This document shows, in pieces, positions 6,040 through 57,755 of a stretch of 64,000 nt of DNA. The notes under the pieces were generated by a model. The model saw nothing but the letters and a program-made list of their open reading frames with translations. It was not told where the DNA came from and searched no databases. Position 1 is the first letter of the stretch. Each line of letters starts with the position of its first letter. This DNA is from an uncultured Gammaproteobacteria bacterium (GTDB lineage Bacteria; Patescibacteriota; Microgenomatia; CAYQLK01). The translations under genes and the position numbers were made by a program. The stretch spans positions 222,894 through 286,893 of the forward strand of contig CAYOLO010000001.1 in the NCBI GenBank assembly GCA_964404855.1, read 5' to 3'.

Positions 6040-6650
6040 TCTTGACAATCCAAAACGTGTTTTTAGAGGAAAACACGAAAAGTCGAGGAGAGGTTTTTGG
6101 TTTGAGTTCCAACAACGAGCACATAACAATCGGAGAGGCACAGTTGACGAACATGTTGACGAGCACCGTGCATACCCTTGAGGAGTTGGCCGATATGGCT
6201 GATTCACCAAGGGCGGCGGATACCTATCGGGCATTCGCTAGTGCCGAGTGTCTCATGATGGTCGTAACCTCATCCAAGAATGTGGGCGAAGCCGCCGTCT
6301 GCGTTCCCCATTCCGGGCAGTCTGAAAGCCCCAGCGTGACTGTCGTGAAGCACCCCCGCTTCACCATCCCTGCGTCTGACTTGTTTCAGGTGATCTCGCC
6401 CGAAATGGCAAGCCGTCGCAGTCGCGAATCGCTGGCCATGAAGAGCACGCCGGTTAATCCGAAGTACTCGACGAACCATCAGGTCTTGCGGTTGCAACAG
6501 GAGAATGTTGCGAAGGTCGCAAGGCTTATGGCTGTTCTGACAGGGAAGCCGATCGAGGTCCGCTTCCAGGAAGCTGGTGGGCGCAACTTCCCTTACTTGG
6601 ACGAAGTGGTTCATCCTTAACCGGATTACGCGCCTTTAATTGGAACTGTG
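6040..6650 (+). other. GC-rich, ORF-poor island: a candidate large structured ncRNA or a foreign, pseudogenised fragment
   Basis: GC content rises sharply above both flanks. The only long frame (5991..6620) translates to a protein with no family resemblance and overlaps antisense ORFs rich in Arg, Pro and Gly. There are many local hairpins, for example a 7-bp stem at 6345-6364. A + strand intrinsic terminator follows. Confidence 0.25.
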
Positions 6651-6804
6651 AGGTATTTTTGGGCTTAGCACCCCTAGCTTCTTTAGTTTTGTTTGAGATG
6701 GAGAAATTTCATCACAGACAAACTTAGCGAAGCGTCTGTTTTTTTGCAGAGCTAGCCTCCTCACAATTACTTTTTAAGGCTTGTGGTTTGGTTGTTGTGT
6801 GAGT

Positions 6805-17118: not shown

Positions 17119-17410
17119 GGTTATATTTTTCTTTTCGAGAAACAAGGTTTTTAAACTATTTTTTTAATTACATTCTTTTTTCAATCTACTTTCTTGGACG
17201 CAATTTTGGATGTTTGCTTTTTGCTAAAAGCGAACTCTGCGCAACCAAAGTTGCTTCGACCCGAGAGATTTCTTTCTTTCACTTTTTGCTCGCTCTTTTG
17301 CTAAAACAAAATCTGTGCCCACTCAAAAAAAGAGATCCAAGAAAACAGATTGAGGGATATGGGAGACAGAAAGAGATCAACAAAAGGAAAGTTTGGAGTA
17401 TTAAAAGATA

Positions 17411-17440
17411 AAAAAGAGCCCTCCTTTTTAGGGGAGGGCG
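17411..17440 (-). terminator. Intrinsic terminator: CCCTCC/GGAGGG hairpin plus U-tract on the minus strand (family member 1 of 3)
   Basis: GCCCTCC (17418-17424) pairs with GGGAGGGC, preceded on the + strand by an A-run, which is a T-run on the minus strand. It sits directly downstream of the 17457..17681 minus gene. Confidence 0.6.
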
Positions 17441-17456
17441 TGGGGTGTGAGGAGTG

Positions 17457-17681
17457 TTATTCCTCTTCGTCTTCTTTTTTGATCTTGACGATTCCCAGAA
17501 GGGAGATCAAGAAGAGGACGCCGTTGATGACGGCCGCAGTCACGAAGACGTAGCCGAACAGGCTCCAGAGATCTTGAGAGCTGGTTTCCGCTGCACTGTC
17601 CTGCGCAATGTCGATGAGAAAGAACGCAAGTACAGTGAGGGCCGTGTTGACGGCCAAAATTACGGGAACGATGTATTTCAA
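17457..17681 (-). CDS. Small two-TM membrane protein with an acidic C-terminus, GC-rich relative to its surroundings
   Basis: The 74-aa ORF has two hydrophobic helices and a higher GC than its neighbours, with the conserved terminator directly downstream. Confidence 0.45.
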   Translation of the reverse strand: MKYIVPVILAVNTALTVLAFFLIDIAQDSAAETSSQDLWSLFGYVFVTAAVINGVLFLISLLGIVKIKKEDEEE

Positions 17682-17828
17682 AGGACTTTACTCTCCTGCG
17701 GGGATAGGCGAGTGTTGCAGATGAAAAGTATTTCTACAACAGTACTATTATACCATATTTAGGCCTATAGTTCAATAATTTATTGTAATGTTTTTGGTTA
17801 AAAAACCAAAATTGTTTAGAATAGAGTA

Positions 17829-18914: not shown

Positions 18915-20261
18915 TTGAAATTAGGTTTTTTTGGAGCAGATAGAGGGGTAACTGGAAGTAATCATCTAGTGGAATTCGGAGAGACTAAGGTGCTTTTCGA
19001 TTGTGGGATGTATCAGTGTGGTAAGTTTTGCGAAATCGAAAACCATAAACCTTTTGTTTACGATCCAGCGAGTGTAGCGGCAGTATTTGTCTCTCATCCC
19101 CATGCGGATCATTGTGGAAAGTTGCCAAAATTGTACAAAGATGGTTTCCGTGGCAAGGTTTATTGTACTGCTCCAGCAAGAAAATTGGCTCAGGTCGTAT
19201 TAGAGGATAGTGCGAAGTTGATTGGGAGAGAAGCGAGAAAAGATAATATTGAACCGCTTTTTACGCTCGAACATGTTGATGGGGTGATGCAACATTTTGT
19301 TGATTTGGACTATCATACTGAAGTAGAAATCGGAGGTGGAAGATTTAGACTACTTGATGCAGGACATATTTTGGGTTCAGCTATGGTGGTTGGAGAAATC
19401 GAAGGTCGAACTTTGGTTTTTAGTGGAGATTTGGGTAACTCACCAGCACCGCTATTGCAACCAACGGAGACATTACGAAAAGCTGATTTCGTAATTATGG
19501 AATCAACTTATGGTAATCGGTTGCATGAATCGGTAACGGAAAGAGAAAGAAAATTATTGGAAGTTATTCTCGAAGTTGTACAAAATCGCGGAGTATTATT
19601 AATTCCAAGTTTTGCGATTGAGAGGACTCAGGAGTTGTTGCACGATATTGACCATATCCTTGAGGCGAATAATTTAGGGAAGATTAAGGTTTTCCTTGAT
19701 TCGCCAATGGCTATAAAAGCTACAGAAATATACGAAGAATCGTTTAGTTACTTGTCGGACAAGATTAAGGATCACGAAACAGCAAACACTTTGTTTAATT
19801 TCCCACAACTTGAGTTTACGGAATCGAAAGAGGATTCATTAGATATTGATAACGAGAGTAATCCAAAAATAATTATCGCGGGAAGCGGAATGATGAATGG
19901 CGGAAGAATACTTTCGCATGCGGTAAAAGTGTTGCCTGATCCGAAAAACGTTTTGTTAATTGTTGGCTACCAGTCCGAAGGTACTTTAGGTAGGAGGTTA
20001 TTGGAAGGTGAGAGAAAGGTAAGAATTGAAGGGAAAGATGTGTCAGTACAAGCTAGGGTAAAAGCTATTGGTAGCTATTCGGCACACGCTGATCAAAACC
20101 AAATTTTGATGTGGTTTAAGGCAATGGGAAGAATGCCGGAAAAAGTGTTTTTGGTTCACGGTGAAATAGATCAAGCACAAGGACTAGCTGATAAATTAAA
20201 AGCTGAGGGTATTTGTGATGACGTTGTTATTCCATCGTTTGGAGAGGTATTTGAGATTTAG
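18915..20261 (+). CDS. Metallo-beta-lactamase fold beta-CASP ribonuclease (CPSF/RNase J-like)
   Basis: It has the 'HPHADHCG' MBL motif, is about 450 aa and carries C-terminal beta-CASP His motifs. Confidence 0.7.
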   Translation: MKLGFFGADRGVTGSNHLVEFGETKVLFDCGMYQCGKFCEIENHKPFVYDPASVAAVFVSHPHADHCGKLPKLYKDGFRGKVYCTAPARKLAQVVLEDSAKLIGREARKDNIEPLFTLEHVDGVMQHFVDLDYHTEVEIGGGRFRLLDAGHILGSAMVVGEIEGRTLVFSGDLGNSPAPLLQPTETLRKADFVIMESTYGNRLHESVTERERKLLEVILEVVQNRGVLLIPSFAIERTQELLHDIDHILEANNLGKIKVFLDSPMAIKATEIYEESFSYLSDKIKDHETANTLFNFPQLEFTESKEDSLDIDNESNPKIIIAGSGMMNGGRILSHAVKVLPDPKNVLLIVGYQSEGTLGRRLLEGERKVRIEGKDVSVQARVKAIGSYSAHADQNQILMWFKAMGRMPEKVFLVHGEIDQAQGLADKLKAEGICDDVVIPSFGEVFEI

Positions 20262-22752: not shown

Positions 22753-23730
22753 ATGTTTGATTTAATCGCCATTGGGGATACATCAAGAGATGTTTTTAAT
22801 GTTGTTCCTGAAGAAACGGCTTACTGTAGTATTGACACTAAAGAGTGCGTAATCGCGTTTAACTACGGAGACAAGATAATTGTTGAGGAGATGGTTACGA
22901 CAATTGGTGGTAATTCGGCAAACGTAGCAGTCGGAGCCTCAAGGCTTGGACTAAATTCTGCACTTTATACACAAATTGGTGACGACGAAGTGGGGCAGGT
23001 AATAATAAGTGAACTAAAAAAAGAAAAAGTTTCGCCAAATTATGTTTTGGTTGAAAAAAACAAGAGAAGTAATTACACAACGGCGATTTCTTTTCAGGGG
23101 GAGAGGACATTGTTTGTGTACCACGAGCCGAGAGTTTATGAGTTGCCTGATTTGGAAAAATCGGCCTGGGTATATCTAAGTTCAACTGGTAATGGGTTTG
23201 AAAAAATGCATAGCCAAGCTGTGGAGTATGTAAAAAGAGTAGGGGCAAAACTGGCTTATAATCCTGGGAGTCATCAGATGAAAGCTGGAATGAGTGTAAT
23301 GGGTCCGGTGATTATGAGTAGTGAAATTGTTTTTTTGAATCGTGAAGAGACGGCCAGAATATTAGGAGATGGTTATGATGCTTCGGATGATGTCAAAAAA
23401 TTAATGGATGGAGTAATTAATTTGGGGGCAAAAATTGCAGTACTTACTGATGGTCCATCTGGATCTTATGCAACGGACGGGAAAAATTACTGGAACTGTG
23501 GAATATTTGATGCACCAATTGTAGACAGAACTGGTTGTGGTGATGCTTTTTCTACTGGGTTTACTGTAGCTATTTCTAAAGGTTTGGATATACCAACAGC
23601 GATGGTTTGGGGAACAATGGAGAGCGCTGGAGTGATTGCAGTTATGGGACCGCAAGGCGGATTGTTAACAGCTCAAGAGATGGAGAGAGTGGTAAGTCAA
23701 AATCCAGATTTTAAAGCTAAGTTAATTTAA
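22753..23730 (+). CDS. PfkB-family carbohydrate/nucleoside kinase (ribokinase-like)
   Basis: It has the 'DRTGCGDAFSTGF' anion-hole/catalytic Asp motif and a GG motif near the N-terminus. Confidence 0.8.
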   Translation: MFDLIAIGDTSRDVFNVVPEETAYCSIDTKECVIAFNYGDKIIVEEMVTTIGGNSANVAVGASRLGLNSALYTQIGDDEVGQVIISELKKEKVSPNYVLVEKNKRSNYTTAISFQGERTLFVYHEPRVYELPDLEKSAWVYLSSTGNGFEKMHSQAVEYVKRVGAKLAYNPGSHQMKAGMSVMGPVIMSSEIVFLNREETARILGDGYDASDDVKKLMDGVINLGAKIAVLTDGPSGSYATDGKNYWNCGIFDAPIVDRTGCGDAFSTGFTVAISKGLDIPTAMVWGTMESAGVIAVMGPQGGLLTAQEMERVVSQNPDFKAKLI

Positions 23731-23802
23731 TTGTTTTTTATTCCATTGTTCACTTTAAGCTCTTTGGCTTGCATTGCGTTAGAGCACTTTATAGGATATA
23801 AA

Positions 23803-23843
23803 AAGTCAAAAAAAGCCCCTAAGTCTGTGAAGACTAAAGGGGC
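23803..23843 (-). terminator. Intrinsic terminator for the adenylosuccinate-lyase (purB) gene
   Basis: The + strand reads A-run, then GCCCCTaAGTCT-GTGA-AGACTaaAGGGGC. On the minus strand this is a hairpin followed by TTTTTTT. Confidence 0.55.
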
Positions 23844-23863
23844 TAAGGTAAGGCGGAGACAGC

Positions 23864-25330
23864 TTACAGGTTTAGCTGTTTTCTCCAGTTGGCGACGATT
23901 GTGCCTGTTTTGGTTTTGGCGATGCCAGTGTAGAGCGTTGGGTCTTGCAGGACGAGGCGTTGCTTCGGGCTCATTCTGGCGATGTACGAAGCAAGTTCTG
24001 GGTCTTGGTTAAGAATGTCTTCCATTCCTTTGCCTTCACGAATCGCTTGCTGTGTTAGTTTGCGGACTTTTTCGTGCGCGTCTGGGTGACCGAGGAAGGC
24101 GAGGATGATCTGAAGTGGTTCGGCCAAAATCAGACCTTTTTGTAGGTTGAGATTGGCTGACATGTTGCCTTGGTCGACTTCGAGCTTGGCGATGATACGG
24201 CTGAGTCTCTTGGAGCTGACAACGAGGTAATTGACGCTTTCGCCGTAGGTTCGACCCGAGGCAGAGTTGGTCAAATCTCTTTGGTGCTCGCTGAGCTGGT
24301 CTAGGAAAACCGTGACAAGACGGCCAATGCTGGTTTTCCAGAGACTTTTCGCGTTCTCGAGGCCGATAGGGTTTCGTTTTTGCGGCATTATCGAAGAGCC
24401 GACCTGTTCTTCTTCGAATGGTTCTCCAACTTCGCCGATTTCGGTCCGTTGCAGGTGCCTGAGGCTGTCTGAAAGATCAGCAAGGATTCCGTGTGCGATG
24501 GTTATTTCGCACATCAGACGAATCATTGGCTCGGGCGGAGCGATTTGGGTCGAGTGCTCGGCGGGTTTAAGGCCGAGAATGAAGAGGATTTCACGTTCGA
24601 ATTCCTCAGGGTCATCGAAAAAGAGTGAGGAGGCATTGTAGGCTCCAACTGAGCCTGAGAACTTGCCTTCGAGTTCTTTGGCGAGACTTTCGAGCTTTTC
24701 AATCGATTGGCCAAGCCTAACGACGAAGCCTGCGACGAAGAATCCGAAGGTGAGGGGCGAAGCGTGTTGTCCGTGAGTTCGGCCGACCTCGACTGTTTCT
24801 GCTTCGCGAGAAGCAAGTTCAATCAAAAATCGCTCGAGTTTTTTTAGTTCAGGAATGACGACTTTTATTGTCACATCCCTAAAGCGCATGGCCGTGGCGG
24901 TGTCTCTGATGTCAAAAGAAGTAGCCGGCGTGTGAACGAACGGCTTATTTTTTTTGCTCAGACGGTTTCTAATCAGGTTGACGAGGGCACGAATATCGTG
25001 CTTAATTCGGTTTTCTTCCTGATAGATTTGGTGGGTTGTGATCTGTTTGGCGGCGCGTTCAACTTGCTCAACCGCAGAAGCTGGAGCCATGCCTCGTCTG
25101 TTGAGCACAGTGACGAGAGCAAGTTCAACCTGCAGAAGGTAGCCAGTGAAGGCGTTCTCGGAGAGGTATTTGGCAACATCGGAATCCCAGTACCGATAGT
25201 CGGCGGGGGAGATGCTGTCGTAGACATCACGAGTAAGAAAGCGCGGAAGTCTGACCATCCTTTTGTCCTTGTAACGTGCGAAATTTCCAAGCTCGCTTAT
25301 TAGCGAACTATAGGTTGGCAAGGTTAGCAT
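23864..25330 (-). CDS. purB: Adenylosuccinate lyase family protein (fumarate lyase superfamily), compositionally GC-rich
   Basis: It has the 'GSSIMPQKRNPI' fumarate-lyase signature and is 488 aa. GC and codon usage (GCC, CTC, CCG, ACG) differ clearly from the surroundings. Confidence 0.8.
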   Translation of the reverse strand: MLTLPTYSSLISELGNFARYKDKRMVRLPRFLTRDVYDSISPADYRYWDSDVAKYLSENAFTGYLLQVELALVTVLNRRGMAPASAVEQVERAAKQITTHQIYQEENRIKHDIRALVNLIRNRLSKKNKPFVHTPATSFDIRDTATAMRFRDVTIKVVIPELKKLERFLIELASREAETVEVGRTHGQHASPLTFGFFVAGFVVRLGQSIEKLESLAKELEGKFSGSVGAYNASSLFFDDPEEFEREILFILGLKPAEHSTQIAPPEPMIRLMCEITIAHGILADLSDSLRHLQRTEIGEVGEPFEEEQVGSSIMPQKRNPIGLENAKSLWKTSIGRLVTVFLDQLSEHQRDLTNSASGRTYGESVNYLVVSSKRLSRIIAKLEVDQGNMSANLNLQKGLILAEPLQIILAFLGHPDAHEKVRKLTQQAIREGKGMEDILNQDPELASYIARMSPKQRLVLQDPTLYTGIAKTKTGTIVANWRKQLNL

Positions 25331-25406
25331 TTTTGTTTGGAAGTTGCAAATAAAACTTGGTAAAAATTAGTTAATGCGATATTGTTGAGATAGAGAGGAA
25401 AATTAA

Positions 25407-26375
25407 ATGATGAAAGTTTTTGTAACTAGGCCGATACCTGAACCTGGAATAAGTATGCTTAAAGAAGCAGGGTACGAGGTTGAAATAAATACAGAGGATA
25501 GAGTATTAACTACGGAAGAGCTTAAGGAAAAAATATCTGGAGTTGATGCAGTTTTATCTTTGTTAACTGACAAAATAACTCCTGACGTTTTGGAATCTGC
25601 GGGTAGTAACCTAAAAATCGTAGCTAATTATGCTGTGGGTTTTGACAATATTGATTTGGAGGTCGCAGCATCAAAAAATGTGGCGGTGACTAATACTCCA
25701 GGAGTTTTGACGGAAGCAGTGGCAGAACATTCCTTGGCACTTATTATGGCTGTAGCTAGAAAAATTGTGGAAGCTGATAAATATGTCAGAGATGGTAAAT
25801 ACAAACAGTGGGAGCCCGCACTTTTGGTGGGGGAAGAAATGTTTGGAAAGACAATTGGAATCGTTGGAATGGGTAGAATTGGCAGTTATTTAGCCAAAAT
25901 TTGCGCTGCAGGACTGGAGATGAAGGTTTTGTATCAGGATATGATGAGGAATGATTTGATGGAGGGTGAGTTTGGGATACAAAAAGTCGAGCTTGATCAA
26001 TTGGTGAGAGAATCTGACATTATTTCTGTTCACACACCACTAACTGACGAAACAAAACATTTGATTGATGAAGAAGAGTTCGCAGCTATGAAGCCAAATG
26101 TGATTCTTATAAATACTTCTCGTGGTCCAGTGGTGTCGGAGGCGGCACTTATTAATGCGCTTAAGTCTGGCAAAATTGCTGGGGCGGGAATTGATGTGTA
26201 TGAATTTGAGCCTGAAATATCACCAGAACTAATGAGTGTGCCCAATTTGGTAATGACGCCTCATATTGCTTCAGCTACGACAAAAGCCCGACAGAGTATG
26301 AGTGAGATTGCCGCGAAAAATATAATTGCTGTTCTTTCTGGACAGCCAGCACTTAACCAAGTTGTAAAAAAATGA
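25407..26375 (+). CDS. D-isomer specific 2-hydroxyacid dehydrogenase (glycerate/phosphoglycerate dehydrogenase family)
   Basis: It has the 'GIVGMGRIGSYLA' NAD-binding motif and the catalytic His/Glu/Arg pattern. Confidence 0.85.
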   Translation: MMKVFVTRPIPEPGISMLKEAGYEVEINTEDRVLTTEELKEKISGVDAVLSLLTDKITPDVLESAGSNLKIVANYAVGFDNIDLEVAASKNVAVTNTPGVLTEAVAEHSLALIMAVARKIVEADKYVRDGKYKQWEPALLVGEEMFGKTIGIVGMGRIGSYLAKICAAGLEMKVLYQDMMRNDLMEGEFGIQKVELDQLVRESDIISVHTPLTDETKHLIDEEEFAAMKPNVILINTSRGPVVSEAALINALKSGKIAGAGIDVYEFEPEISPELMSVPNLVMTPHIASATTKARQSMSEIAAKNIIAVLSGQPALNQVVKK

Positions 26376-32685: not shown

Positions 32686-32704
32686 TAAAAGTAAGGAAAA
32701 AATG

Positions 32705-32778
32705 TGGGCGCGCTTGGACTTGAACCAAGGACATCGACCTTATAAGAGTCGCGCTCTAACCAACTGAGCTACGCGCCC
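32705..32778 (-). tRNA. tRNA-Ile, anticodon UAU
   Basis: The reverse complement GGGCGCGTAGCTCAGTTGGTTAGAGCGCGACTCTTATAAGGTCGATGTCCTTGGTTCAAGTCCAAGCGCGCCCA folds as a cloverleaf with a 7-bp acceptor and a 5-bp T-stem. The anticodon loop is CTTATAA. CCA is not encoded. Confidence 0.8.
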
Positions 32779-42502: not shown

Positions 42503-42703
42503 TAACCTTTTAAGTTAAAGAGATTATAGGTTCTCGCTCAAATTCGCAAAATAATTTGAGTCCCCCAAAATTTTAAGTGAGTGCTCGTTTTCTGGTGAAA
42601 ACTACACCTCGGTTTTGATTCTCAAAAACTCAGTTTGAGCTACAAGCCTTCTTTAATGTGAAACACGCAAAAAAGGAACACTCCTAACTCTCGCAAACTC
42701 AAG

Positions 42704-42731
42704 AAAAAACCCTCCTTTTGAGGGGAGGGTT
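42704..42731 (-). terminator. Intrinsic terminator: CCCTCC/GGAGGG hairpin family member 2
   Basis: The + strand reads AAAAAACCCTCCTTTTGAGGGGAGGGTT, directly downstream of the 42749..42997 minus gene. Confidence 0.6.
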
Positions 42732-42748
42732 GTGGTAAGCGATTAGCT

Positions 42749-42997
42749 TTAGACGGCTCGCGGTGGAAGGTCGATGAGGCCGATGAGGCAGGCCATTCCG
42801 AAGACCGAAAGAAGTATTGCTACTGCTCCGGTTCCGAATACGCCAAATGCCTCGTTGCGACCGAGAGAGAAAAACTCGATGGCTTGATGAGTTGGTTGAC
42901 TGTATGTCGGACGACTTTGTTCTTGGTGTGTACCGAGGGACATTAGTCCAAAGATAGCTCCAAAAACGAGGAAGAAGATTCCGATCGGGATTTCCAC
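42749..42997 (-). CDS. Small two-TM membrane protein, GC-rich
   Basis: An 82-aa ORF with the same architecture as the 17457..17681 gene and elevated GC. Confidence 0.45.
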   Translation of the reverse strand: MEIPIGIFFLVFGAIFGLMSLGTHQEQSRPTYSQPTHQAIEFFSLGRNEAFGVFGTGAVAILLSVFGMACLIGLIDLPPRAV

Positions 42998-43027
42998 GTG
43001 AGATTAAGTCTCCTTTTTGCCGAGGAA

Positions 43028-43510
43028 TTAGGCTTCGCTTGTGCGCATTGCCAGCTTGACTAGCAGGTAAACCCCCGAAAGGATAAGTCCTGCGTATAGC
43101 ATGAACGGATCTTCGTCCATGCTACTGATCATTGCGCCGAGGGTGGCAATTGCGACCATTCCTAAGATGTCTCCAAGGGAGATTCTCCAGAAAAGCCTAA
43201 TCGAGTCCATTTCGTAAGCGTTCACTATTACACCAAGCAGAAGCAAGGCGAAAAGCGGAACGGCGAGAATACAGAGAACGAGGGCGACTTCTTCGATTGC
43301 CAGAAAGTCCTTAAAGAAGTACCACGGCATGGCCGAAGCAAAGACTTTGAGGATAATTTCTGCGATTGAGGGGAAGCGTCTTGGGCACTGTTCGTCTGCT
43401 TTGCGAAACAGCTCTTGGATGTTGTTCCTAAAGAGAAAGATTAGGGCAGCTAAGGAGAGGATGACCCCTCCAAGGTTTTGGATGACCCAGAGAAACACGT
43501 AATAGGGCAA
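43028..43510 (-). CDS. Membrane protein (4-5 TM), hypothetical, GC-rich
   Basis: A 160-aa ORF, co-directional with the small membrane gene and separated from it by 30 nt. Confidence 0.5.
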   Translation of the reverse strand: MPYYVFLWVIQNLGGVILSLAALIFLFRNNIQELFRKADEQCPRRFPSIAEIILKVFASAMPWYFFKDFLAIEEVALVLCILAVPLFALLLLGVIVNAYEMDSIRLFWRISLGDILGMVAIATLGAMISSMDEDPFMLYAGLILSGVYLLVKLAMRTSEA

Positions 43511-43675
43511 CGCTCATTCCTTCTTTTTTGCGCGAGTTAAAGTACAGATCTTACCCACCTATTATATCACATTTTAAGCCTATAGTCAACTGATTTGAAG
43601 CTAAATTTTTGAATTTTAGAAAAGTTTTTATTCTGCGGGAATTGTGCGATAATATGAGTATAATTATAGGTAATT

Positions 43676-44740
43676 ATGATTCAATATCAGCCGAAATTTA
43701 CGATTAATAATCAGATTCTTACTAATATCGCCAATATTGTGGCGGCTAAAGAATTTATTGAAGATGCACCACTTATTCCTGCATGGGAAGCTAAGTTTAG
43801 GCGTGAGGCTATGGAGCGAACTGTTCATCATGGAACGCATTTGGAAGGCAATAAGTTGAATATGGAACAGGCCAAAGAAGTGCTCGATGGAAGGCAGATT
43901 TTGGCAAAACAGGATGATATTCAAGACATTATTAACTATCGGGAGGTTCTTAGTTATATCGATAGTGTGGCTAAAAAGGAAGGAAAATTGACTGAGGAAG
44001 TATTACTTAAAATTCATAGTTTAACGGTTGATAAGTTGTTGCCTGACGACCAAAAAGGGAAGTATCGTACTTTGCAGGTTTATGTGACGAACAGTCGAAC
44101 TGGAGAGGTGTCTTTTACACCACCAAAACCTGAAGAGGTGGCTGGTGAAATTAGATATTTTTTGGATTGGCTTAATTCAAAGGAATCGGAAAATATTCAT
44201 CCGACTCTAAAAGCCGGTGTGGTTCACTATAATTTGGCCAGAATTCATCCGTTTGTTGATGGTAATGGGAGAACTTCTAGGGCGTGTGCAACATTAGTTT
44301 TGTTCTTGTCTGGCTATGATATTAAAAAGTTTTTTGCGTTGGAAGAGTATTACGATATGGATGCAGCTAGTTACTACCAAGCTTTACAGGAAACAAGTAA
44401 TCAGATAGTTGTGAAAGAATCTGAGCGTGATTTGACTGGGTTTTTGGAATATTTTACGAAAGGTCTGGCGGTAGAGCTTATGCGTGTACGAGAAAGAGTT
44501 CAGCATCTCTCTAGTGATTTGAGGCTCAAAAAACGTGTGGGACAGTTGGCTCTGACTGAGAGACAGGCAAAGATTGTGGAATATATTCAATCGTATGGAA
44601 AAATTACAAACAGAGAGTGGAGATCTTTGTTGCCTGACTATTCTGACGATACGGTTTTGAGGGATTTGAAGGATTTGATTAAGAAAAAAATCATTAAGAA
44701 AAAAGGAATGACAAAGTCGGCTGCTTACGTGATGAAATAA
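43676..44740 (+). CDS. Fic-family protein (AMPylation fold) with C-terminal winged-helix domain
   Basis: It has the canonical Fic motif 'HPFVDGNGRTSRA' and a C-terminal HTH-like region. Confidence 0.85.
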   Translation: MIQYQPKFTINNQILTNIANIVAAKEFIEDAPLIPAWEAKFRREAMERTVHHGTHLEGNKLNMEQAKEVLDGRQILAKQDDIQDIINYREVLSYIDSVAKKEGKLTEEVLLKIHSLTVDKLLPDDQKGKYRTLQVYVTNSRTGEVSFTPPKPEEVAGEIRYFLDWLNSKESENIHPTLKAGVVHYNLARIHPFVDGNGRTSRACATLVLFLSGYDIKKFFALEEYYDMDAASYYQALQETSNQIVVKESERDLTGFLEYFTKGLAVELMRVRERVQHLSSDLRLKKRVGQLALTERQAKIVEYIQSYGKITNREWRSLLPDYSDDTVLRDLKDLIKKKIIKKKGMTKSAAYVMK

Positions 44741-44770
44741 AAAAAAGACCCTCCTTTTTAGGGGAGGGTG
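44741..44770 (-). terminator. Intrinsic terminator: CCCTCC/GGAGGG hairpin family member 3, between convergent genes
   Basis: The + strand reads AAAAAAGACCCTCCTTTTTAGGGGAGGGTG. The minus-strand reading gives a hairpin plus T-run. It is 5 nt after the fic stop. Confidence 0.6.
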
Positions 44771-44791
44771 TGAGGTGAGTTGATGTTTTGT

Positions 44792-45373
44792 CTAGCTTGG
44801 TGGGGCCAGATGTTCGATGAGGGCGGTGAACTCGCGAATTTGGCACTGAACCAGACCCGCTCTAAGGTGTTTGGCTAGGGCGTTTACAATTGCAGTGTCG
44901 AACCTTTGGGTGAGTTCGATTTTGGCGACATTACCAGTTGTGGTAATAGAAACCAGCCAATGATCGCCAGCGTTGCCGTGTTTGGTGAGTTCGATTCTCA
45001 GCTCAACTTGGTCAGTGTCAGCCTCTTGATATACAAGAGGGTTTGGTTCAGATAACTTGGCTGTGGTTTTGACGCTCCCTACTGAACCGATTGTTTTTAG
45101 GCCTTCGGTTATGGCAGGCAAAATGGTTTGGGTCAGGAGAATGAAGTGCGGATTTTGAGGGTCTGAGATTCGATGTTTTTCGGCTGTTCCGATCGAAGCA
45201 TCAGTGATATTGCCACAGAAGGCAAAGTGGTTGAGCGAATCGGTTTCGAATCTGACGTTTACACTTGTTCGGAGCATTGTGTTAGCGGTGACCACCTTTT
45301 TGATTAAAGTGCTGTTTTGGGCTTTGCGGATTGAGATTGTAAATATTTTGAGATTCAAATGCAAACAAAACAC
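44792..45373 (-). CDS. Hypothetical protein, GC-rich (start likely at an internal Met)
   Basis: A 193-aa ORF with higher GC than its neighbours and no recognised motif. Confidence 0.4.
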   Translation of the reverse strand: MFCLHLNLKIFTISIRKAQNSTLIKKVVTANTMLRTSVNVRFETDSLNHFAFCGNITDASIGTAEKHRISDPQNPHFILLTQTILPAITEGLKTIGSVGSVKTTAKLSEPNPLVYQEADTDQVELRIELTKHGNAGDHWLVSITTTGNVAKIELTQRFDTAIVNALAKHLRAGLVQCQIREFTALIEHLAPPS

Positions 45374-51638: not shown

Positions 51639-54600
51639 GTGTTGTTTTATTATTTGGGGCAGTATATGGCTGCCTCAAAAAATGATTATCCAGTATATAG
51701 ATTGACGCTTAGTCGCAAGAGTAAGTTTGGCGGGGCGTTAAAGAAATTGGTCGTTTTGAATGTTTTGTCTTTGTTAATTTTTTCTTCACTTTTTGCCCCA
51801 CTTATACAATTTAATATTTTGAACTCTAGACCATTAGATGGGCTGTTTGAAGCTATGGCGGCCGAGCAAAGTTTTGACGATGAGTCTCCACAGACTGATA
51901 AAGAAATCGTTATTATCAGAGAGGTTTGTGGAATATCAGGTTCGGTTGAGGTGACTTTTGCGTGGAAAGAAATTGATAACGCTTCGAAATACAGTTTAGA
52001 GATTTCGAGAATGGCTGAATTTGACCCTGCATCGACATTAACAGCAGTAACTTCGTCACTGGAACACACAGTAACATTGGAGGCAGATGTAAGGTTTAGA
52101 GTTAGAGTGGTTGGCGAAGGTCAAAATGGCGAGACAAAATCGTCACTGGCTGCTACCTATTACAACACTGATTGTGCACAAGAAAAAGAGACAAATAGAT
52201 TGGCAGCTTATTCCAAAACGTTAAGTGAAAATATTGGAGCGGGTGGTAGTGGTGCAGTCGCTGGGGAAAAACTGATTGCTCAGTCTAGCTCAATGACTTG
52301 TACTATGAATCCCGATAATGTGTTTAGTATTAATGTAGGACCGTCGACGGTAGTTACTAATTTTAGTGTCAATATTAATAATCTTGATCAGGGTGAATTA
52401 TATGTTGGCGCAACTTATGTGGATGGTACGGTAAGGTTTTTTAAGCAACAGCCAAACGCGGAGCTAACTTTGTCGGGCAATGCCAGAATTCGTGCTGGAG
52501 CAGATCAGGGATATTATAATTCCTCGTCTCAGGGTGGAAATAAGACAATGTATTTTTCTATCTATACAGATGGGGGGCATGTAGCCCAACAGAATGCATA
52601 TACGCTTAGCGCTTTTTATGTTCAGACAGTTGTTAATGGTCAGCAAGTAGGAAGCAATAAACAGTGTAATGGTGCTTCAAGCGGTTTGGGTGGACTAGTA
52701 ATTCATACTGTAGCCAGTGCTACGCCAACACCAACACCAACAAGGACGCCAACACCAACAAGAACACCTACGCCTACGCCAACAACAACGGCTGCAACAC
52801 CTACACCAACAAGAACACCTACGCCTACGCCAACAACAACGGCTGCAACACCTACACCAACAACTCCAGTTAGTGCGATGACTTGTAAAATGAATCCTGA
52901 TACGACATTTAATTTGACAGTTGGATCATCTCCGGTTGAGCAGAATTTTAATATTACTGTTTCAAATCTTGAAAAAGGAGAGTTGTATGTTGGGGCTACA
53001 TATGTTGATGGGACTGTAAGATTTTTCAAACAACAGCCGAATGCAGAATTGTCGTTATCTGGCAACGCTAGGATTAAATCGTCATCTGATCAAGGATTTT
53101 ATAACTCTCCAAGTGCTGGAGGAAGTAAGACTTTTAACTTTTCAATCTCATTAGACTCTAATCATGTTGCACAGAGTAGGGCATATGAACTTAGCGCTTT
53201 TTATGTTCAGACAGTTGTTAATGGTCAGCAAGTAGGAAGCAATAAACAGTGTAATGGTGCTTCAAGCGGTTTGGGTGGAATGGTGATTAATACCCTTGCT
53301 GGACCAACTCCGACTCCGACACCAACACCGCCTTCAGTTGGTACTTTTTCGATTAGTTATTCTGGGGTGTCTTCAGTTGAATCATTAGATCGTGGTCAAA
53401 ACAAAACATTTAGTGTTATTTATAAAGATACAGGTGGTTGGGGAGGGAAACCTGTAGAGATTTATGTTAACGATAGTGCTTTGACGAGTAATAATACAGC
53501 TTCTTTGGACAACGGAAATGTCTATTTGTCTTTTGTTCAAAAAACGATTTATCCAACGACAACTCAACAGTCTTTGTCTTTTACATTGAGCGCGAACGAG
53601 TATGCGGCCGCAAAGGACTTTGTTTTTAAGTTACAGGGTTTATATGTCGCGTCTTCTCTAGTTCTACCGTCATCATCGTCAACTGGTTTTGCGGTATCGA
53701 ATCAGTTTACCGCTCGAGTTGCTGCCCCTGTTAGTCCAACACCTACTGCGACCAGCGTTCAAAACACGCCTACTCCTACAACTACGGTTCAAAACACGCC
53801 TACTCCTACTACCTTTGTTTCAAATATGGCCTGTGTGATGAATCCGGCTAGTGGGGTATTTAATATTCAGGCAAGTTCGACTCAACAGACTCTTTCGCCG
53901 TTTACAATAACGGCTAATAATTTGGACAGAGGAGAATTGTACATTGGAGTCAACTATGAGGAAGCAGGAGTGTACAAGTTTTTTAATTATGAACCGAACA
54001 ACACAATTATCTTATCGGATCAGCCTAATTTTTCTGCAACGATAAGATCGGAAGATACGGGTTACTACAACTCTCCAGGAGGTGGTTCAAAAACATTTAG
54101 GTTTAATATTATTCTGAGTGCAAATCATCCAGGTGCAACTCCAGCTTATCGTTTACCGGAAATCTATATTCAAACTGTAGATCGAAGCAGTGGAACAGCT
54201 CAGCAGATTGGTAGCAACAAGAACTGTACGACTAATGGTATTACCGTAAACACAATCGGTGCACCAACCCCAACAGCGACTAATGCACCGACTTCGACGC
54301 CGACTCCAACAGTCACTCCGTCAGCTAATATTGCCTGTTCGTTAAGTGTTACGGCTACTAATTTTGTTCGTGGAACCGCGGCAAGTAGTTTGGGAAATAT
54401 AGTGATGAGTGGAGGAGTAAGTGGAACAGCATATTATATTGGCTTAATTAGTGGAGTAAATAACACTCTTTTTGCAAATCAACCTGGAAATAAAATTGAA
54501 ATTGGAGATAAAGATTTTAATCCATTAAAAGTTTATCCACAGGCAACTACATTCTCTGGTTCTAGCGGTCAGACTGCAGTGTTTATTGATCCGTCAAATA

Positions 54601-57600
54601 CGGTTTTAAGTGGAAGTTACAGTTTTGAACTGGGCTTGTTTACACAATCAGCTGTTTTGGTTAAGAATTGTGGAAATCCTGTTACTCTGACTGTTTCGGA
54701 TGGGGGATCTAATCCGACACCACTAGGCAAAGTAACACTTGAAACATGTAGTAATGGCAAGGTTAACGCTACTTTGGACTGGTCGCTTTGGTCCTCGACA
54801 ATTGGATCAACTCCAACAAAATATATTTGGGAATATAATTATGGGGGATTAATTGGGACAGGAGAGAGTGGGTATACAACCAGTGAAAGTTTTTCAAGAA
54901 CAGCAAATATAACAGGGCTTACTTCTCAATCAGAAATTGCTTGGAGAGCTAAGGCGTATAACGGTACTACTTTGTTAGCAACCTCTCCGGTTTTTACTCA
55001 CACAATAATATATTGTGAGCCACCAGTAGCTACAGGAACGACTGGTGTAGGTGATTCAATAATGTTGGGAGCAAAGAGTACTTTGGAAGCAAATATTCCA
55101 GGAATTGATATTGATGCGGTTGTGAGTCGAGGGGCAGCAGCAGGAATTTCAGTATTACAAGCAAAACTGGATTCTGGAACCCTTGGAGCCAAAGTAATAG
55201 TTGGATTAGGAACTAATAATGGAATTACTGATTCTCAAATTGATCAAATTGCTTCAATAGTTGCGTCTCCGAGAAAACTTTTCTTGATTACTGTAAAAGT
55301 TCCTCAAGGCCATGAATCTTCATCAAACAACACGATTATAAATGGAGCCAGTAGGCATGGGGCTACATTAATTGATTGGTATTCGAATTCGATTAATCAT
55401 CCCGAATATTTTGCGTCTGACGGAATACATTTAACTGGCCAAGGTATTAGTGCTTATTCAAACCTAGTTTTGGCTGCATTAGGCTCAGCTCCAGTGACTA
55501 CACCACCAGGCGAGTTTACAGTTTTGAATAGAGTGTTTAATTGTGTTGATGCGAATAATATAAATATTGTTTTCACTTGGTCTCAGTCATCAGGAGCTGT
55601 CAGATATGATTTGTATTGGGAGAGGACTCCAAATGGTACGGCCTCGTTTGATATTAGAGACGAACAATATCTTGCTGGCTCAAGTACAACTCTTAGCCAT
55701 TCCAACTCAACATTTGCTCCGAACCAGAGACTTTGGTATGACGTAAAAGCCGTAAGTGCCAGCGGTGGAAGTGTTTGGTCCAAGAATGGTACATATTATG
55801 TCGACTTGCCAACTTGTTCATCTCCAACCGCAACGCCGACAAATACTCCAGTACCAACTGCAACAGCTACGCCAACGAAAACCCCAACAAATGTACCAAC
55901 CGCAACGCCGACAAATACTCCAGTACCAACGGCTACCCCAACTCCACAAATTGCTATGTCTTGCTCGATTAATCCAACATTGCTTGCATTAAAAACTGGC
56001 CAAATATTGCCATTTACAGTGACGGTAAATAATCTTGATCAAGGAGAATTGTATGTAGGTGCTTACTATTTTGACGATCCAAATGGACACTTCTTTAAGC
56101 TTCAAAGCGGAATAGTTACACTTAGTGACCAAGCCAGAATTGTTTCGGCTGATGCAAGTGCAGGGTATTATCAATCAGCTTCAGGTGGCGGATCGAGACA
56201 GTTTGCGTTTAAGATTGAGGCTGATGCTAATGGCCCAGTTGGTCAATATACTTTAAGAGAATTTTTTATTCAGACAGTTAGGAATGGACAGTTTATTCGA
56301 AATACAAATTGTGTAACTGGAGGAACTCAATTAGTTATTAATGTTAGTGCAGGCATAGTGCCAACAAATACTCCTACAAAAACTCCAACGCCAACCGCAA
56401 CGCCTCAACCTGGAACGCCCACAAATACTCCTGCAGTTAATACTCCTACACCAACCATAACGAGTACGCCTGGAAACTTTAAGCCAGTAATTAGTGATAC
56501 TTCTGCAAAATGTAGTTCAATTAGCAACGCAGAAATCTTAGTTAATTGGGGAGCTGTTAGTGGTATCGAGGGCTTTGGAATTGAAATGACGACTGCAGCG
56601 TTTAGCCCATCTGACTTTAGTTACTTTAGGTACCCATCAGATTGGAGCAATTTAACAAGTCTATATCAACAGACAAGAATTAGTGATTATGGTTTTATTT
56701 CGAATACAAATTATCAGATTAGGATAACGGCAATTAAATCTGATGGAACTCAATATCAATCCGATGTTCAAACTGTACAAACTGGTGACTGTGCGAAATT
56801 ATCAGCTGATGTCGGTGGCCTGAATGGTTCGGCGTCTAACAAGCTAGTGCCAATGACAATTGGTGGAGATGTTGTACCAAACGCCTTCGTGGCAGTTGCT
56901 TTGTATAACAACGGTTGGGAGAGGCCTGTTCAAATTGAGGTTAAGGGAGTTGGCGGGGTTTATCAGCCAATAACTGCTTCTGGTCAGGAAGTACAAATTG
57001 GTGCAGGAGTATTTGTTAAGGCTAAAGCGTCTGGAACACTTACTTCGCCGTTTGCAAAAAACGCACCTTCATATCGAGAGATATCTTATCGAACAGTGTA
57101 CTTTGATGCTTATGCAACGGCAGATGCGCAGGTTGGTAGCGATCCGATTTTTATGATTAGAATTAAAGATGGGGCTGTTTATTATGATGGTGCTAGTTAC
57201 GGGGCTGCAATTCCGATTGCGAAAAAAGCTACATATAATGGAACAAAAGAGTCGGGGTTTGAGTTTATGAAGGTATTGACTGGTGGAGCTAACGGAGGAG
57301 GGTGTAGAGGGTCGAGTTGTTACGAGGTGAATTACAATCCTCAAAGGGCAAAATTACTGGTAGGAATGTGGGGAACGGAATCTGGTTGGAGTACTGTGGG
57401 TACCAGTGGGTGTGACCAGTTTGGATGTCACTCAGAATCAATGTACTCATTCGGTGCAACCGATTGGGACAGATGGGGTGGCGAGACAGGGTTTTATGAT
57501 AGTAGTTTGCCGAATAGTGGAAGGGGTAATTTTGAGACAGAAACACGGGCTGTTGATAGGATGTTTACTCAATCGTTTAACGACCCTTCGTCAGGATCGT

Positions 57601-57755
57601 TCCGAATGTATGCGCCAACATATTTTGGCCCATGGAATTTAGGGGATGATAATCCAACATATGGTGGAAACTGGTGCACGCATCCATCAAATGGATATAG
57701 AGCTGCTTATAATACGGGACTACTTAACGACTTAGGGCCTAACTGTTACGATTAA
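51639..57755 (+). CDS. Giant (2038 aa) secreted/surface multidomain protein with Pro/Thr-rich linkers, repeated Cys-containing modules, FN3-like modules and an SGNH (GDSL) hydrolase domain
   Basis: It has an N-terminal TM/signal. PT linkers recur at about 52720-52870, 53290-53330, 53740-53820, 54250-54310, 55820-55940 and 56360-56470. Four paralogous modules of about 145 aa begin at about 52290, 52880, 53825 and 55960. The SGNH motifs are GDSIM, GLGTNNG and DGIHLT, at about 55040-55480. The C-terminal roughly 420 aa form a Cys/Trp/Gly-rich domain. Confidence 0.7.
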   Translation: MLFYYLGQYMAASKNDYPVYRLTLSRKSKFGGALKKLVVLNVLSLLIFSSLFAPLIQFNILNSRPLDGLFEAMAAEQSFDDESPQTDKEIVIIREVCGISGSVEVTFAWKEIDNASKYSLEISRMAEFDPASTLTAVTSSLEHTVTLEADVRFRVRVVGEGQNGETKSSLAATYYNTDCAQEKETNRLAAYSKTLSENIGAGGSGAVAGEKLIAQSSSMTCTMNPDNVFSINVGPSTVVTNFSVNINNLDQGELYVGATYVDGTVRFFKQQPNAELTLSGNARIRAGADQGYYNSSSQGGNKTMYFSIYTDGGHVAQQNAYTLSAFYVQTVVNGQQVGSNKQCNGASSGLGGLVIHTVASATPTPTPTRTPTPTRTPTPTPTTTAATPTPTRTPTPTPTTTAATPTPTTPVSAMTCKMNPDTTFNLTVGSSPVEQNFNITVSNLEKGELYVGATYVDGTVRFFKQQPNAELSLSGNARIKSSSDQGFYNSPSAGGSKTFNFSISLDSNHVAQSRAYELSAFYVQTVVNGQQVGSNKQCNGASSGLGGMVINTLAGPTPTPTPTPPSVGTFSISYSGVSSVESLDRGQNKTFSVIYKDTGGWGGKPVEIYVNDSALTSNNTASLDNGNVYLSFVQKTIYPTTTQQSLSFTLSANEYAAAKDFVFKLQGLYVASSLVLPSSSSTGFAVSNQFTARVAAPVSPTPTATSVQNTPTPTTTVQNTPTPTTFVSNMACVMNPASGVFNIQASSTQQTLSPFTITANNLDRGELYIGVNYEEAGVYKFFNYEPNNTIILSDQPNFSATIRSEDTGYYNSPGGGSKTFRFNIILSANHPGATPAYRLPEIYIQTVDRSSGTAQQIGSNKNCTTNGITVNTIGAPTPTATNAPTSTPTPTVTPSANIACSLSVTATNFVRGTAASSLGNIVMSGGVSGTAYYIGLISGVNNTLFANQPGNKIEIGDKDFNPLKVYPQATTFSGSSGQTAVFIDPSNTVLSGSYSFELGLFTQSAVLVKNCGNPVTLTVSDGGSNPTPLGKVTLETCSNGKVNATLDWSLWSSTIGSTPTKYIWEYNYGGLIGTGESGYTTSESFSRTANITGLTSQSEIAWRAKAYNGTTLLATSPVFTHTIIYCEPPVATGTTGVGDSIMLGAKSTLEANIPGIDIDAVVSRGAAAGISVLQAKLDSGTLGAKVIVGLGTNNGITDSQIDQIASIVASPRKLFLITVKVPQGHESSSNNTIINGASRHGATLIDWYSNSINHPEYFASDGIHLTGQGISAYSNLVLAALGSAPVTTPPGEFTVLNRVFNCVDANNINIVFTWSQSSGAVRYDLYWERTPNGTASFDIRDEQYLAGSSTTLSHSNSTFAPNQRLWYDVKAVSASGGSVWSKNGTYYVDLPTCSSPTATPTNTPVPTATATPTKTPTNVPTATPTNTPVPTATPTPQIAMSCSINPTLLALKTGQILPFTVTVNNLDQGELYVGAYYFDDPNGHFFKLQSGIVTLSDQARIVSADASAGYYQSASGGGSRQFAFKIEADANGPVGQYTLREFFIQTVRNGQFIRNTNCVTGGTQLVINVSAGIVPTNTPTKTPTPTATPQPGTPTNTPAVNTPTPTITSTPGNFKPVISDTSAKCSSISNAEILVNWGAVSGIEGFGIEMTTAAFSPSDFSYFRYPSDWSNLTSLYQQTRISDYGFISNTNYQIRITAIKSDGTQYQSDVQTVQTGDCAKLSADVGGLNGSASNKLVPMTIGGDVVPNAFVAVALYNNGWERPVQIEVKGVGGVYQPITASGQEVQIGAGVFVKAKASGTLTSPFAKNAPSYREISYRTVYFDAYATADAQVGSDPIFMIRIKDGAVYYDGASYGAAIPIAKKATYNGTKESGFEFMKVLTGGANGGGCRGSSCYEVNYNPQRAKLLVGMWGTESGWSTVGTSGCDQFGCHSESMYSFGATDWDRWGGETGFYDSSLPNSGRGNFETETRAVDRMFTQSFNDPSSGSFRMYAPTYFGPWNLGDDNPTYGGNWCTHPSNGYRAAYNTGLLNDLGPNCYD
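52285..53325 (+). repeat. Two tandem near-identical copies, about 450 bp each, of a protein module inside the giant gene. A third copy is at about 53823-54260 and a fourth at about 55957-56350.
   Basis: Long identical nucleotide runs are shared, for example 'agcgctttttatgttcagacagttgttaatggtcagcaagtaggaagcaataaacagtgtaatggtgcttcaagcggtttgggtgga' at about 52607-52696 and about 53195-53284. Confidence 0.7.
52758..52859 (+). repeat. Perfect 2 x 51-nt tandem repeat encoding the PT linker (RTPTPTPTTTAATPTPT x2)
   Basis: The unit 'acaagaacacctacgcctacgccaacaacaacggctgcaacacctacacca' occurs at 52758 and again at 52809. Confidence 0.75.

Follow-up and report, generated by a model that had tools for sequence, protein, structure and literature searches.

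The gene and its predicted product

We analysed a stretch of 64 kb from contig CAYOLO010000001.1, hereafter the window, which belongs to a genome of the Candidate Phyla Radiation (CPR) and contains an adenylosuccinate-lyase-like (purB-type) gene on its minus strand. All coordinates are window positions, and L-numbers (L002, L005 etc.) denote the related loci or genomes that were compared. The coding sequence of this gene, hereafter purB, lies at 23864..25258 and encodes 464 amino acids from the probable start Met25 of the longest minus-strand open reading frame (ORF), which extends over 23864..25330 (488 amino acids) and contains VGSSIMPQKRNPIGLEN. Close homologues are all 458–464 amino acids long and cover 93–95% of the 488-residue ORF; their N-termini read MVRLP, and their first residue corresponds to Met25. 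A Shine-Dalgarno motif (AAGGA, 25266–25270) lies 7 nt ahead of the ATG at 25258, and none is present in the sequence upstream of the ATG at 25330. Because the homologues start at Met25 and AAGGA is correctly spaced before this ATG, the coding sequence is most likely 23864..25258. Homologue coverage and the lack of a motif at the upstream ATG also suggest that the 24-codon 5' extension of the longest ORF (25259..25330, minus strand) is probably an untranslated leader outside the protein.

The gene ends in an intrinsic terminator of its own (23807..23844, minus strand), a bulged 12-bp GC-rich hairpin followed by U7. It lies directly after the stop codon and is kept in L002 and L089. A simple consensus scan for terminators missed this structure, which was detected by folding (centroid −17.8 kcal/mol, z = −3.08), with 1 of 200 shuffled sequences folding equally well.

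The mean G+C content (GC) of the window is 0.386, and almost all of its genes are on the plus strand. The upstream flank of purB encodes RpiB, RPE, a beta-CASP nuclease, a LOG-family protein, the N and C subunits of transketolase and a PfkB kinase. Downstream follow a 2-hydroxyacid dehydrogenase, a DeoC-type aldolase, a class-A beta-lactamase-like protein, DsbA and malic enzyme. The left border of the slot that holds purB is formed by the PfkB-family sugar or nucleoside kinase gene (22753..23730, plus strand; Pfam PfkB, 110 bits), which is convergent with purB, reaches no NCBIfam equivalog and is the neighbour in the slots of all relatives. The right border is a gene for a D-2-hydroxyacid dehydrogenase resembling glyoxylate reductase (25407..26375, plus strand; Pfam 2-Hacid_dh and 2-Hacid_dh_C; NCBIfam glyoxylate reductase at 368 bits, under the cut-off), which is divergent from purB. 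The AT-rich intergenic region between the two divergent genes (25259..25406; GC 0.345) has counterparts in L005 and L127 that carry a tRNA-Ala(CGC) gene, which tRNA scans and blastn found to be absent from the window. No integrase, direct or inverted repeats or att-like duplication were found flanking purB. A XerC-type recombinase gene 8 kb from purB has host composition.

The initial annotation, made from the sequence alone, had placed the protein in the fumarate-lyase superfamily, close to adenylosuccinate lyase (ASL), and had described its gene as lying alone on the opposite strand, with its own terminator, amid genes of the pentose-phosphate pathway and central metabolism. All of this holds. 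The protein matches Pfam Lyase_1 (PF00206; 123.3 bits, cut-off 27) over residues 85–328 of the 488-residue ORF, and its match to ASL_C (PF08328; 65.5 bits, cut-off 35) demonstrates an ASL-type C-terminal domain; the match to ADSL_C (PF10397; 23.7 bits) was under its cut-off. In a search of solved structures, adenylosuccinate lyases topped the 40 matches, with other lyases ranking lower. The best solved relative was the ASL of Thermotoga maritima (1C3U; E = 1.6e-46, roughly 30% identity), with which the H..TS.D, GRTHGxHA and GSSxMPxKxNP regions align residue for residue. The signature loop GSSIMPQKRNPI in the translation aligns to GSSAMPHKKNPI of the T. maritima enzyme. This loop is invariant in 27 homologues, as are H109, T113, S114, D116, R160–H165 and Q238 in the same alignment. 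The H..TS.D and GRTHGxHA regions contain the catalytic histidines, His68 and His141 in the enzymes of T. maritima and B. subtilis.

Among the NCBIfam models, purB (TIGR00928) scored best, ~100 bits above the non-ASL models. Two further observations fit an ASL: the source databases annotate the homologues as adenylosuccinate lyase, and purA is adjacent to or within a few kb of a member of the subfamily in seven loci (L014, L051, L048, L072, L075, L077 and L083), the first two of which are from CPR genomes. The gene product thus most likely acts in the IMP-to-AMP branch of a purine scavenger, where it would catalyse the second step by splitting adenylosuccinate into fumarate and AMP. CPR genomes generally lack de novo nucleotide synthesis (PMC11809585), and we found no literature specifically on purA or purB in Patescibacteria.

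Several points count against this assignment. The score for TIGR00928 (286.9 bits) is under the equivalog cut-off of 326.2, and the second purB equivalog, NF006764, was not reached either (216.3 bits vs a cut-off of 446); the homologue in L127 gave 279 and 210 bits, respectively. Moreover, purA was not found in the 64-kb window by tblastn. Because the protein scores under the NCBIfam purB cut-off and is only ~30% identical to characterised enzymes, its substrate is one that we infer. Models for 3-carboxymuconate cycloisomerase and XcbD also scored substantially, and the protein might therefore be another enzyme of the superfamily, such as a cycloisomerase or a lyase of another succinyl adduct. 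We regard this as very unlikely, given the large lead of the purB models, the rank of the ASLs among the structure matches, the ASL-specific C-terminal domain, the names of the homologues and the nearby purA genes.

Compared to the known PurB enzymes (TIGR00928/PRK09285; 1C3U, 2X75 of S. aureus and 2PTR of E. coli), the window protein has the same Lyase_1 and ASL_C domains and aligned regions bearing the catalytic His and Ser residues, and its subfamily is linked to purA in several lineages. It differs in its low identity to the characterised enzymes, in falling under both curated equivalog cut-offs and in belonging to a separate subfamily centred on CPR, DPANN, Bacillota, Poribacteria and spirochaetes. 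Furthermore, its gene has no other purine gene in 64 kb. The initial annotation had likewise seen no purine genes nearby, and a Pfam scan of 40 other window ORFs detected no purine-pathway domain. It had also proposed an AMP-forming salvage step. The linkage to purA elsewhere makes such a role plausible in the genome of the window as well, but the window itself offers no purA to complete the branch.

The same slot in related genomes

The best 120 database matches of the protein start at 94%, 79% and 77% identity and then level off at 59–64%. Those named by their source are Kaiser-, Sung-, Pace- and Yonathbacteria, other Patescibacteria or an unclassified bacterium, and none of these 120 matches (59–94% identical) carries a non-CPR name. 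In a scan of species-representative genomes, other CPR bacteria had homologues 53–62% identical to the window protein, followed by Bacillota, Halanaerobiales, DPANN and methanogen-related archaea (47–50%) and by Saccharibacteria, Poribacteria and spirochaetes (41–45%). In neighbour-joining (NJ) trees, the window clade sits on a long stem within the CPR (Parcubacteria-type) group and is nested in no sampled donor lineage. For the neighbouring transketolase subunit TktC, clade members likewise range down to 82% identity, after which the next matches are at ≤70%. Because this core gene has an equal identity gap, the long purB stem reflects an isolated host lineage.

An inverted purB occupies the slot between the PfkB and 2-hydroxyacid dehydrogenase genes in five independent genomes from NCBI, JGI and Logan assemblies (L089, L002, L005, L008 and L127). 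The gene has diverged together with its neighbours. Protein identity between the window and L002 is 0.94 for purB and 0.92–0.98 for the neighbours, and between the window and L005 it is 0.79 and 0.72–0.92, respectively. The most distant host, L127, whose neighbouring proteins are 78–88% identical, also has the most distant allele (61%), and the ratios of purB to neighbour distances were proportional at these three depths. The tree calculated from corrected distances by NJ, ((window,L089,L002),(L005,L008)),L127, mirrors the host tree given by the neighbouring genes. In this tree, the window-type clade (allele A) has 100% bootstrap support, and its sister relationship with the L127 type (allele B) has 70%.

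The occupancy of the slot has changed over time. L005 and L127 share an identical tRNA-Ala(CGC) gene, which immediately precedes purB and has the same orientation. The slot of L130 (7472–7761) contains the tRNA-Ala(CGC) gene and a hairpin but no purB, whereas the sub-lineage of the window has purB but no tRNA-Ala; the sequence of L131 stops at PfkB. Most simply, the ancestor had tRNA-Ala and, behind it, purB as one minus-strand unit, parts of which were lost later. Genes may also have been inserted independently 3' of tRNA-Ala, and loss and gain of purB across the relatives are about equally parsimonious. L130 offers a natural comparison genome without purB. In L002, an additional GC-rich gene of the short-chain dehydrogenase/reductase (SDR) type lies between purB and PfkB, of which no remnants were found in the window or in the relatives other than L002.

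Composition of purB and its maintenance

The GC of purB is 0.509, compared to 0.386 ± 0.038 in the 60 other ORFs of the window, and its GC at third codon positions (GC3) is 0.562–0.567, compared to 0.327 ± 0.072. The initial annotation had noted an elevated GC and codons ending in G or C, and purB is truly an outlier in this comparison. The GC-rich block, at 23801–25350, is the longest in the window and its edges match the gene, with an intergenic GC of 0.39 and 0.345 on either side. Most of the excess is due to C-ending codons (GGC 0.65, GTC 0.60, TTC 0.72, TAC 0.82, AAC 0.76, CAC 1.0), and G-ending codons are 2–3 times more common than in other minus-strand genes. Since five other minus-strand genes of the window have an ordinary GC3 of 0.30–0.36, orientation alone does not explain the excess. 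The third-position skew of purB (−0.42) is the same as that of the resident minus-strand genes.

In 73 other homologues, GC3 closely follows the GC3 of the host (slope 1.03, r = 0.95, residual SD 0.049). The window clade departs from this regression by z = +3.9 to +4.4, with the window itself at +4.4, and shows similar shifts in GC1 (z ~2), GC2 (z ~1) and the Arg/Lys ratio (z ~1.3). The outgroups L009, L012 and L092 have intermediate GC3 offsets of +0.11 to +0.15, and in the AT-rich CPR hosts L093 and L095 the homologue has a GC3 of 0.34, close to the host value of 0.31. A still larger offset was seen in a distant homologue from L066, a GTDB locus of 'bacterium isolate BP7.bin59', with a GC3 of 0.91 in a host of 0.62. 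Given L066, GC3 offsets of single genes may occur elsewhere in the family.

The offset of the window clade is stationary. Relative to the neighbouring genes, the GC3 of purB is raised by +0.239 in the window, +0.254 in L089, +0.236 in L002, +0.223 in L005, +0.217 in L008 and about +0.17 in L127. It is thus near-constant across six genomes whose host GC3 spans 0.31–0.47, and the logit-scale shift calculated from these offsets is 0.74–1.06. We denote G or C as S and A or T as W, and GC at four-fold degenerate sites as GC4. According to a two-state model, the neighbouring genes retain an S/W memory of only 0.07 [0.02–0.12] at four-fold sites between the window and L005, so a neutral offset would shrink to 14–35% per lineage. 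Under such neutral decay, the present GC4 offset of +0.23 to +0.29 would require an ancestral GC4 above 1, which is impossible. The four-fold sites of purB have been randomised equally (memory 0.06), with a GC4 of ~0.6 in both the window and L005.

This is further supported by the polarised changes in the window and L002 lineages, which comprise 14 S>W and 13 W>S changes. Per S site, S>W changes were fixed more rarely in purB than in its neighbours (odds ratio 0.22, p = 5.6e-6), and the deficit was replicated in L005/L008 (odds ratio 0.28, p = 0.0035). Fixation of W>S changes tended to be higher in purB (odds ratio about 2, p = 0.09 and 0.16). Between close relatives, identity at four-fold sites was 0.745 for purB and 0.51–0.62 for the neighbouring genes. 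Because the offset is constant, the four-fold sites have turned over and the changes are balanced, the composition is a maintained equilibrium and no decaying relic. In the window, L002 and L005, we detected no GC enrichment in the adjacent ends of the PfkB and dehydrogenase genes or in the intergenic DNA. In L127 and L130, the slot-proximal end of PfkB is enriched in GC3.

A resident and functional ASL of a divergent subfamily, which has occupied the same slot since the ancestor of the clade and is GC-rich by a stable equilibrium, is the explanation we favour and consider probable. Its subfamily is common to CPR, DPANN and other archaea, Bacillota, Poribacteria and spirochaetes. The gene would have held its slot since the ancestor shared by a CPR clade of genus or family rank, initially as a tRNA-Ala(CGC)–purB unit, and the sub-lineage of the window would later have lost the tRNA and one relative purB. 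A GC equilibrium confined to the gene, about +1 logit above the host genome, would track the drift of host GC. In purB, synonymous G/C-to-A/T changes are fixed 2–2.5 times less often than in the neighbouring genes, and this would keep the equilibrium up.

A number of candidate causes of the composition were tried and either rejected or not supported. An antisense or alternative-frame ORF is not conserved, as stop-free stretches are positioned differently among four genomes. There is no sign of an embedded local element, since synonymous conservation and GC3 are uniform along purB. A structured mRNA was suggested by a mean folding z of −1.23, compared to −0.03 to −0.44 in the neighbouring genes, but genes with the offset (−0.6 to −1.2) overlap those without it (+0.2 to −1.0). 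A recombination hotspot specific to purB is contradicted by mosaicism across the whole 10-kb block and by the lack of GC spill-over. An effect of strand or orientation fails not only on the ordinary minus-strand genes of the window but also on the homologue in L012, which is co-oriented with its neighbours and still shifted. Transcription-associated deamination, by reasoning, would deplete C on the coding strand, opposite to the observed excess of C. A family-wide need for GC-rich codons is at odds with AT-rich hosts that carry AT-rich homologues, a mobile cassette with the absence of direct or inverted repeats flanking purB, and a phage or plasmid reservoir with a best viral match of 39% identity and plasmid matches below 30%.

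This leaves a bias in fixation that favours G/C and operates on purB itself. As the source of this bias, selection on the purB transcript or codons is our preferred guess, since the effect does not reach beyond the borders of the gene. A tRNA gene ahead of purB in the ancestral arrangement would fit strong transcription. In this respect purB would resemble highly expressed genes, and it has in common with them a strong preference for NNC over NNU codons in two-fold boxes. It differs from them in that its G-ending codons and its first and second codon positions are also shifted towards GC; furthermore, purB is not a classically highly expressed gene.

Several observations weigh against the favoured explanation. 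The outgroup used for polarisation is nearly saturated. Since this biases parsimony towards S>W in purB, the lack of an S>W excess is conservative. The tests above revealed no mechanism behind the GC-favouring bias. The shifts in GC1, GC2 and Arg/Lys ratio are as expected of a gene that formerly resided in a GC-richer genome. The sister relationship of alleles A and B, at 70% NJ bootstrap, is possibly due to long-branch attraction, and the L127 allele is 59–61% identical to the window type, yet 67–69% to unrelated CPR homologues. Finally, the slot is variable, being empty of purB in L130, extended by a GC-rich SDR gene in L002 and situated 3' of a tRNA gene in relatives, and this variability together with the tRNA neighbour gives the classic look of inserted DNA.

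The initial annotation had suggested that the gene is compositionally foreign and hence horizontally acquired, which is mostly unsupported. A recent acquisition from a compositionally foreign donor would account for the deviating GC and GC3, the opposite strand, the own terminator and the absence from one close relative. We give it scarcely any credence, since the gene has the same position and an equal GC shift in five further independent genomes whose proteins are as little as 61% identical, co-diverges with its neighbours, has the third-position skew of resident minus-strand genes, shows no ongoing decay, and has only CPR bacteria as nearest homologues and no close viral or plasmid copy. 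The protein phylogeny, a clade within CPR with the topology of the host, largely places the gene with vertically inherited homologues.

An ancient lateral transfer within CPR, from a donor with a GC3 of about 0.55–0.65 and by insertion 3' of tRNA-Ala(CGC), once or twice (alleles A and B), is a more serious alternative, although we consider it doubtful. Because the slot is variable and tRNA-adjacent in relatives, the gene may have passed from one CPR lineage to another early on, at the base of the clade, and its composition may have originated in a GC-richer CPR lineage. In line with such a transfer, purB lies directly downstream of tRNA-Ala in L005 and L127 while L130 has the tRNA without purB; the three codon positions and the Arg/Lys ratio resemble those of a gene at equilibrium with a host GC3 of ~0.5–0.65; the closest outgroup, L090, has a host GC3 of 0.54 and a purB GC3 of 0.57; by raw identity, alleles A and B match unrelated CPR homologues at least as well as each other; and in L002 the same spot received the SDR gene. 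Yet a transfer explains the origin of the composition and not its persistence, given a four-fold memory of 0.06–0.07 without loss of GC and balanced substitutions. Against it also stand a clade that is nested in no sampled donor lineage, with alleles A and B sisters in 70% of the bootstraps, as in the host tree, and the absence of an integrase, direct repeats or an att-like duplication, with a XerC-type recombinase of host composition. We also compared purB with tRNA-associated genomic islands and with genes recognised as horizontally acquired by their atypical GC. Like these, purB has atypical GC and codons, opposite orientation, an own terminator, a position 3' of a tRNA gene in relatives, presence/absence polymorphism and, in one lineage, a further GC-rich gene inserted alongside. 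In contrast to islands, it is a single housekeeping-type gene lacking an integrase, repeats or att duplication, it co-diverges with the host, its composition is stationary rather than ameliorating, and its relatives come from one phylum-level group.

Two further explanations concern the maintenance of the composition. If the slot were a hotspot of homologous recombination, GC-biased gene conversion (gBGC) could raise the G+C of the resident gene by biased repair. Consistent with this, the enrichment extends to C- as well as G-ending codons whether or not they are likely to be optimal, and it reaches every codon position, a pattern ascribed to bacterial gBGC (Lassalle et al. 2015, PMC4450053). 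A fixation bias of about 1 fits the rates per site, genes have been gained, lost and inserted in the slot, relationships among the window, L089 and L002 are mosaic, including a breakpoint within purB, and PfkB is GC3-enriched towards the slot in L127 and L130. However, mosaic segments are as common in the AT-rich neighbouring genes, and in the window, L002 and L005 there is no spill-over into the flanks, though conversion tracts must end there; the edges of the GC block match the gene. The gBGC-enriched genes described previously (PMC4450053) resemble purB in their G/C-ending codons irrespective of optimality and in a G/C fixation bias against an AT-biased mutation background, but in our judgement an offset of +0.22 in GC3 for one gene looks far larger, and it ends at the gene borders with no recombination signal specific to purB. 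Gene conversion is therefore unlikely in our view, and we infer that the bias reflects selection on the gene or transcript instead. Alternatively, a second function in the same DNA, such as an antisense protein gene or a structured or antisense RNA, might constrain the synonymous sites. Between close relatives the four-fold sites evolve more slowly than in the neighbouring genes, and the sense strand folds somewhat better than its shuffles. Nevertheless, this appears extremely improbable, as four genomes share no antisense or alternative-frame ORF at a common position, purB is uniform over its whole length in synonymous conservation and GC3, the folding scores overlap those of genes without the offset, and the window has no Rfam match besides tRNAs.

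For annotation, these results imply that the gene can be called a CPR-type adenylosuccinate lyase and should carry no flag for recent foreign insertion. They matter wherever horizontal transfer in CPR genomes is inferred from nothing but an atypical GC, and support the view that some CPR bacteria keep the two-step conversion of IMP to AMP without de novo purine synthesis. A GC3 offset of +0.22 that persists through complete synonymous turnover could provide a test case for telling selection on GC or codons from biased gene conversion in genomes that are assumed to be under weak selection. We regard this offset as a curiosity rather than a new kind of system.

Other features of the window

Smaller GC-rich patches lie at 6051–6750, 17351–17750, 42601–43550 and 44701–45300. 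The latter three have a GC of 0.47–0.48, and each ends in a shared minus-strand terminator (17405–17447, 42701–42739 and 44735–44777), composed of CCCTCCCC, a loop, GGAGGG and a T-run. On the minus strand, they encode apparent small hydrophobic proteins of 74 (17457–17681), 82 (42749–42997), 160 (43028–43510) and 193 amino acids (44792–45373), which have no Pfam match; the patches gave no Rfam match even at E ≤ 1. The patch at 17.4 kb is conserved, and likewise GC-shifted, in L005. These three patches and purB may form a class of GC-rich, minus-strand, self-terminated genes. We put forward only tentatively, as a rather unlikely idea, that this small class, purB and genes for small membrane proteins, is held GC-rich by a gene-confined bias of ~1 logit against the AT-rich plus-strand backbone. 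If true, it would mean effective selection on the nucleotide content or transcript properties of single genes in an ultra-small, mutation-biased genome, one possible purpose being to keep head-on or antisense-exposed transcripts functional.

An AT-rich element of 210 bp (42521–42730), located after recF, ends in the shared terminator and is 94% identical to L002 12219–12427. The copy in L002 follows the extra SDR gene between purB and PfkB, which suggests that GC-rich cargo genes travel with a common 3' module. The block at 6051–6750 (700 bp, GC 0.52) is nearly free of GC skew. Neither of its strands contains a convincing ORF, and it matched nothing in Pfam or, even at E ≤ 1, in Rfam; it could be an undescribed structured RNA or an orphan gene.

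The strands of the window are extremely asymmetric. About 90% of its genes are on the plus strand, where the GC skew is about +0.3 throughout, except for values near zero over 52–57 kb. C-ending codons are almost absent from plus-strand genes and common in minus-strand genes; usage of TTC is 0.06 in the former and 0.42 in the latter. An ORF of 2038 amino acids at 51639–57755, with an unusually high second-position GC of 0.507 and a weak skew, probably encodes a repetitive surface protein. The beta-CASP/metallo-beta-lactamase nuclease at 18915–20261 scores highest with the NCBIfam model of the type VII CRISPR-associated Cas14 (432 bits, short of the 800 cut-off) and lower with aCPSF1. It is probably a housekeeping enzyme of the RNase J/CPSF type, and we saw no CRISPR context.

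Most bacteria read AUA with a lysidine-modified CAU tRNA. The window contains a tRNA-Ile with anticodon UAU (32704–32778), which is also present in L002 (2415–2489) and L130 (15130–15204) and lies beside the XerC-type recombinase gene in relatives.

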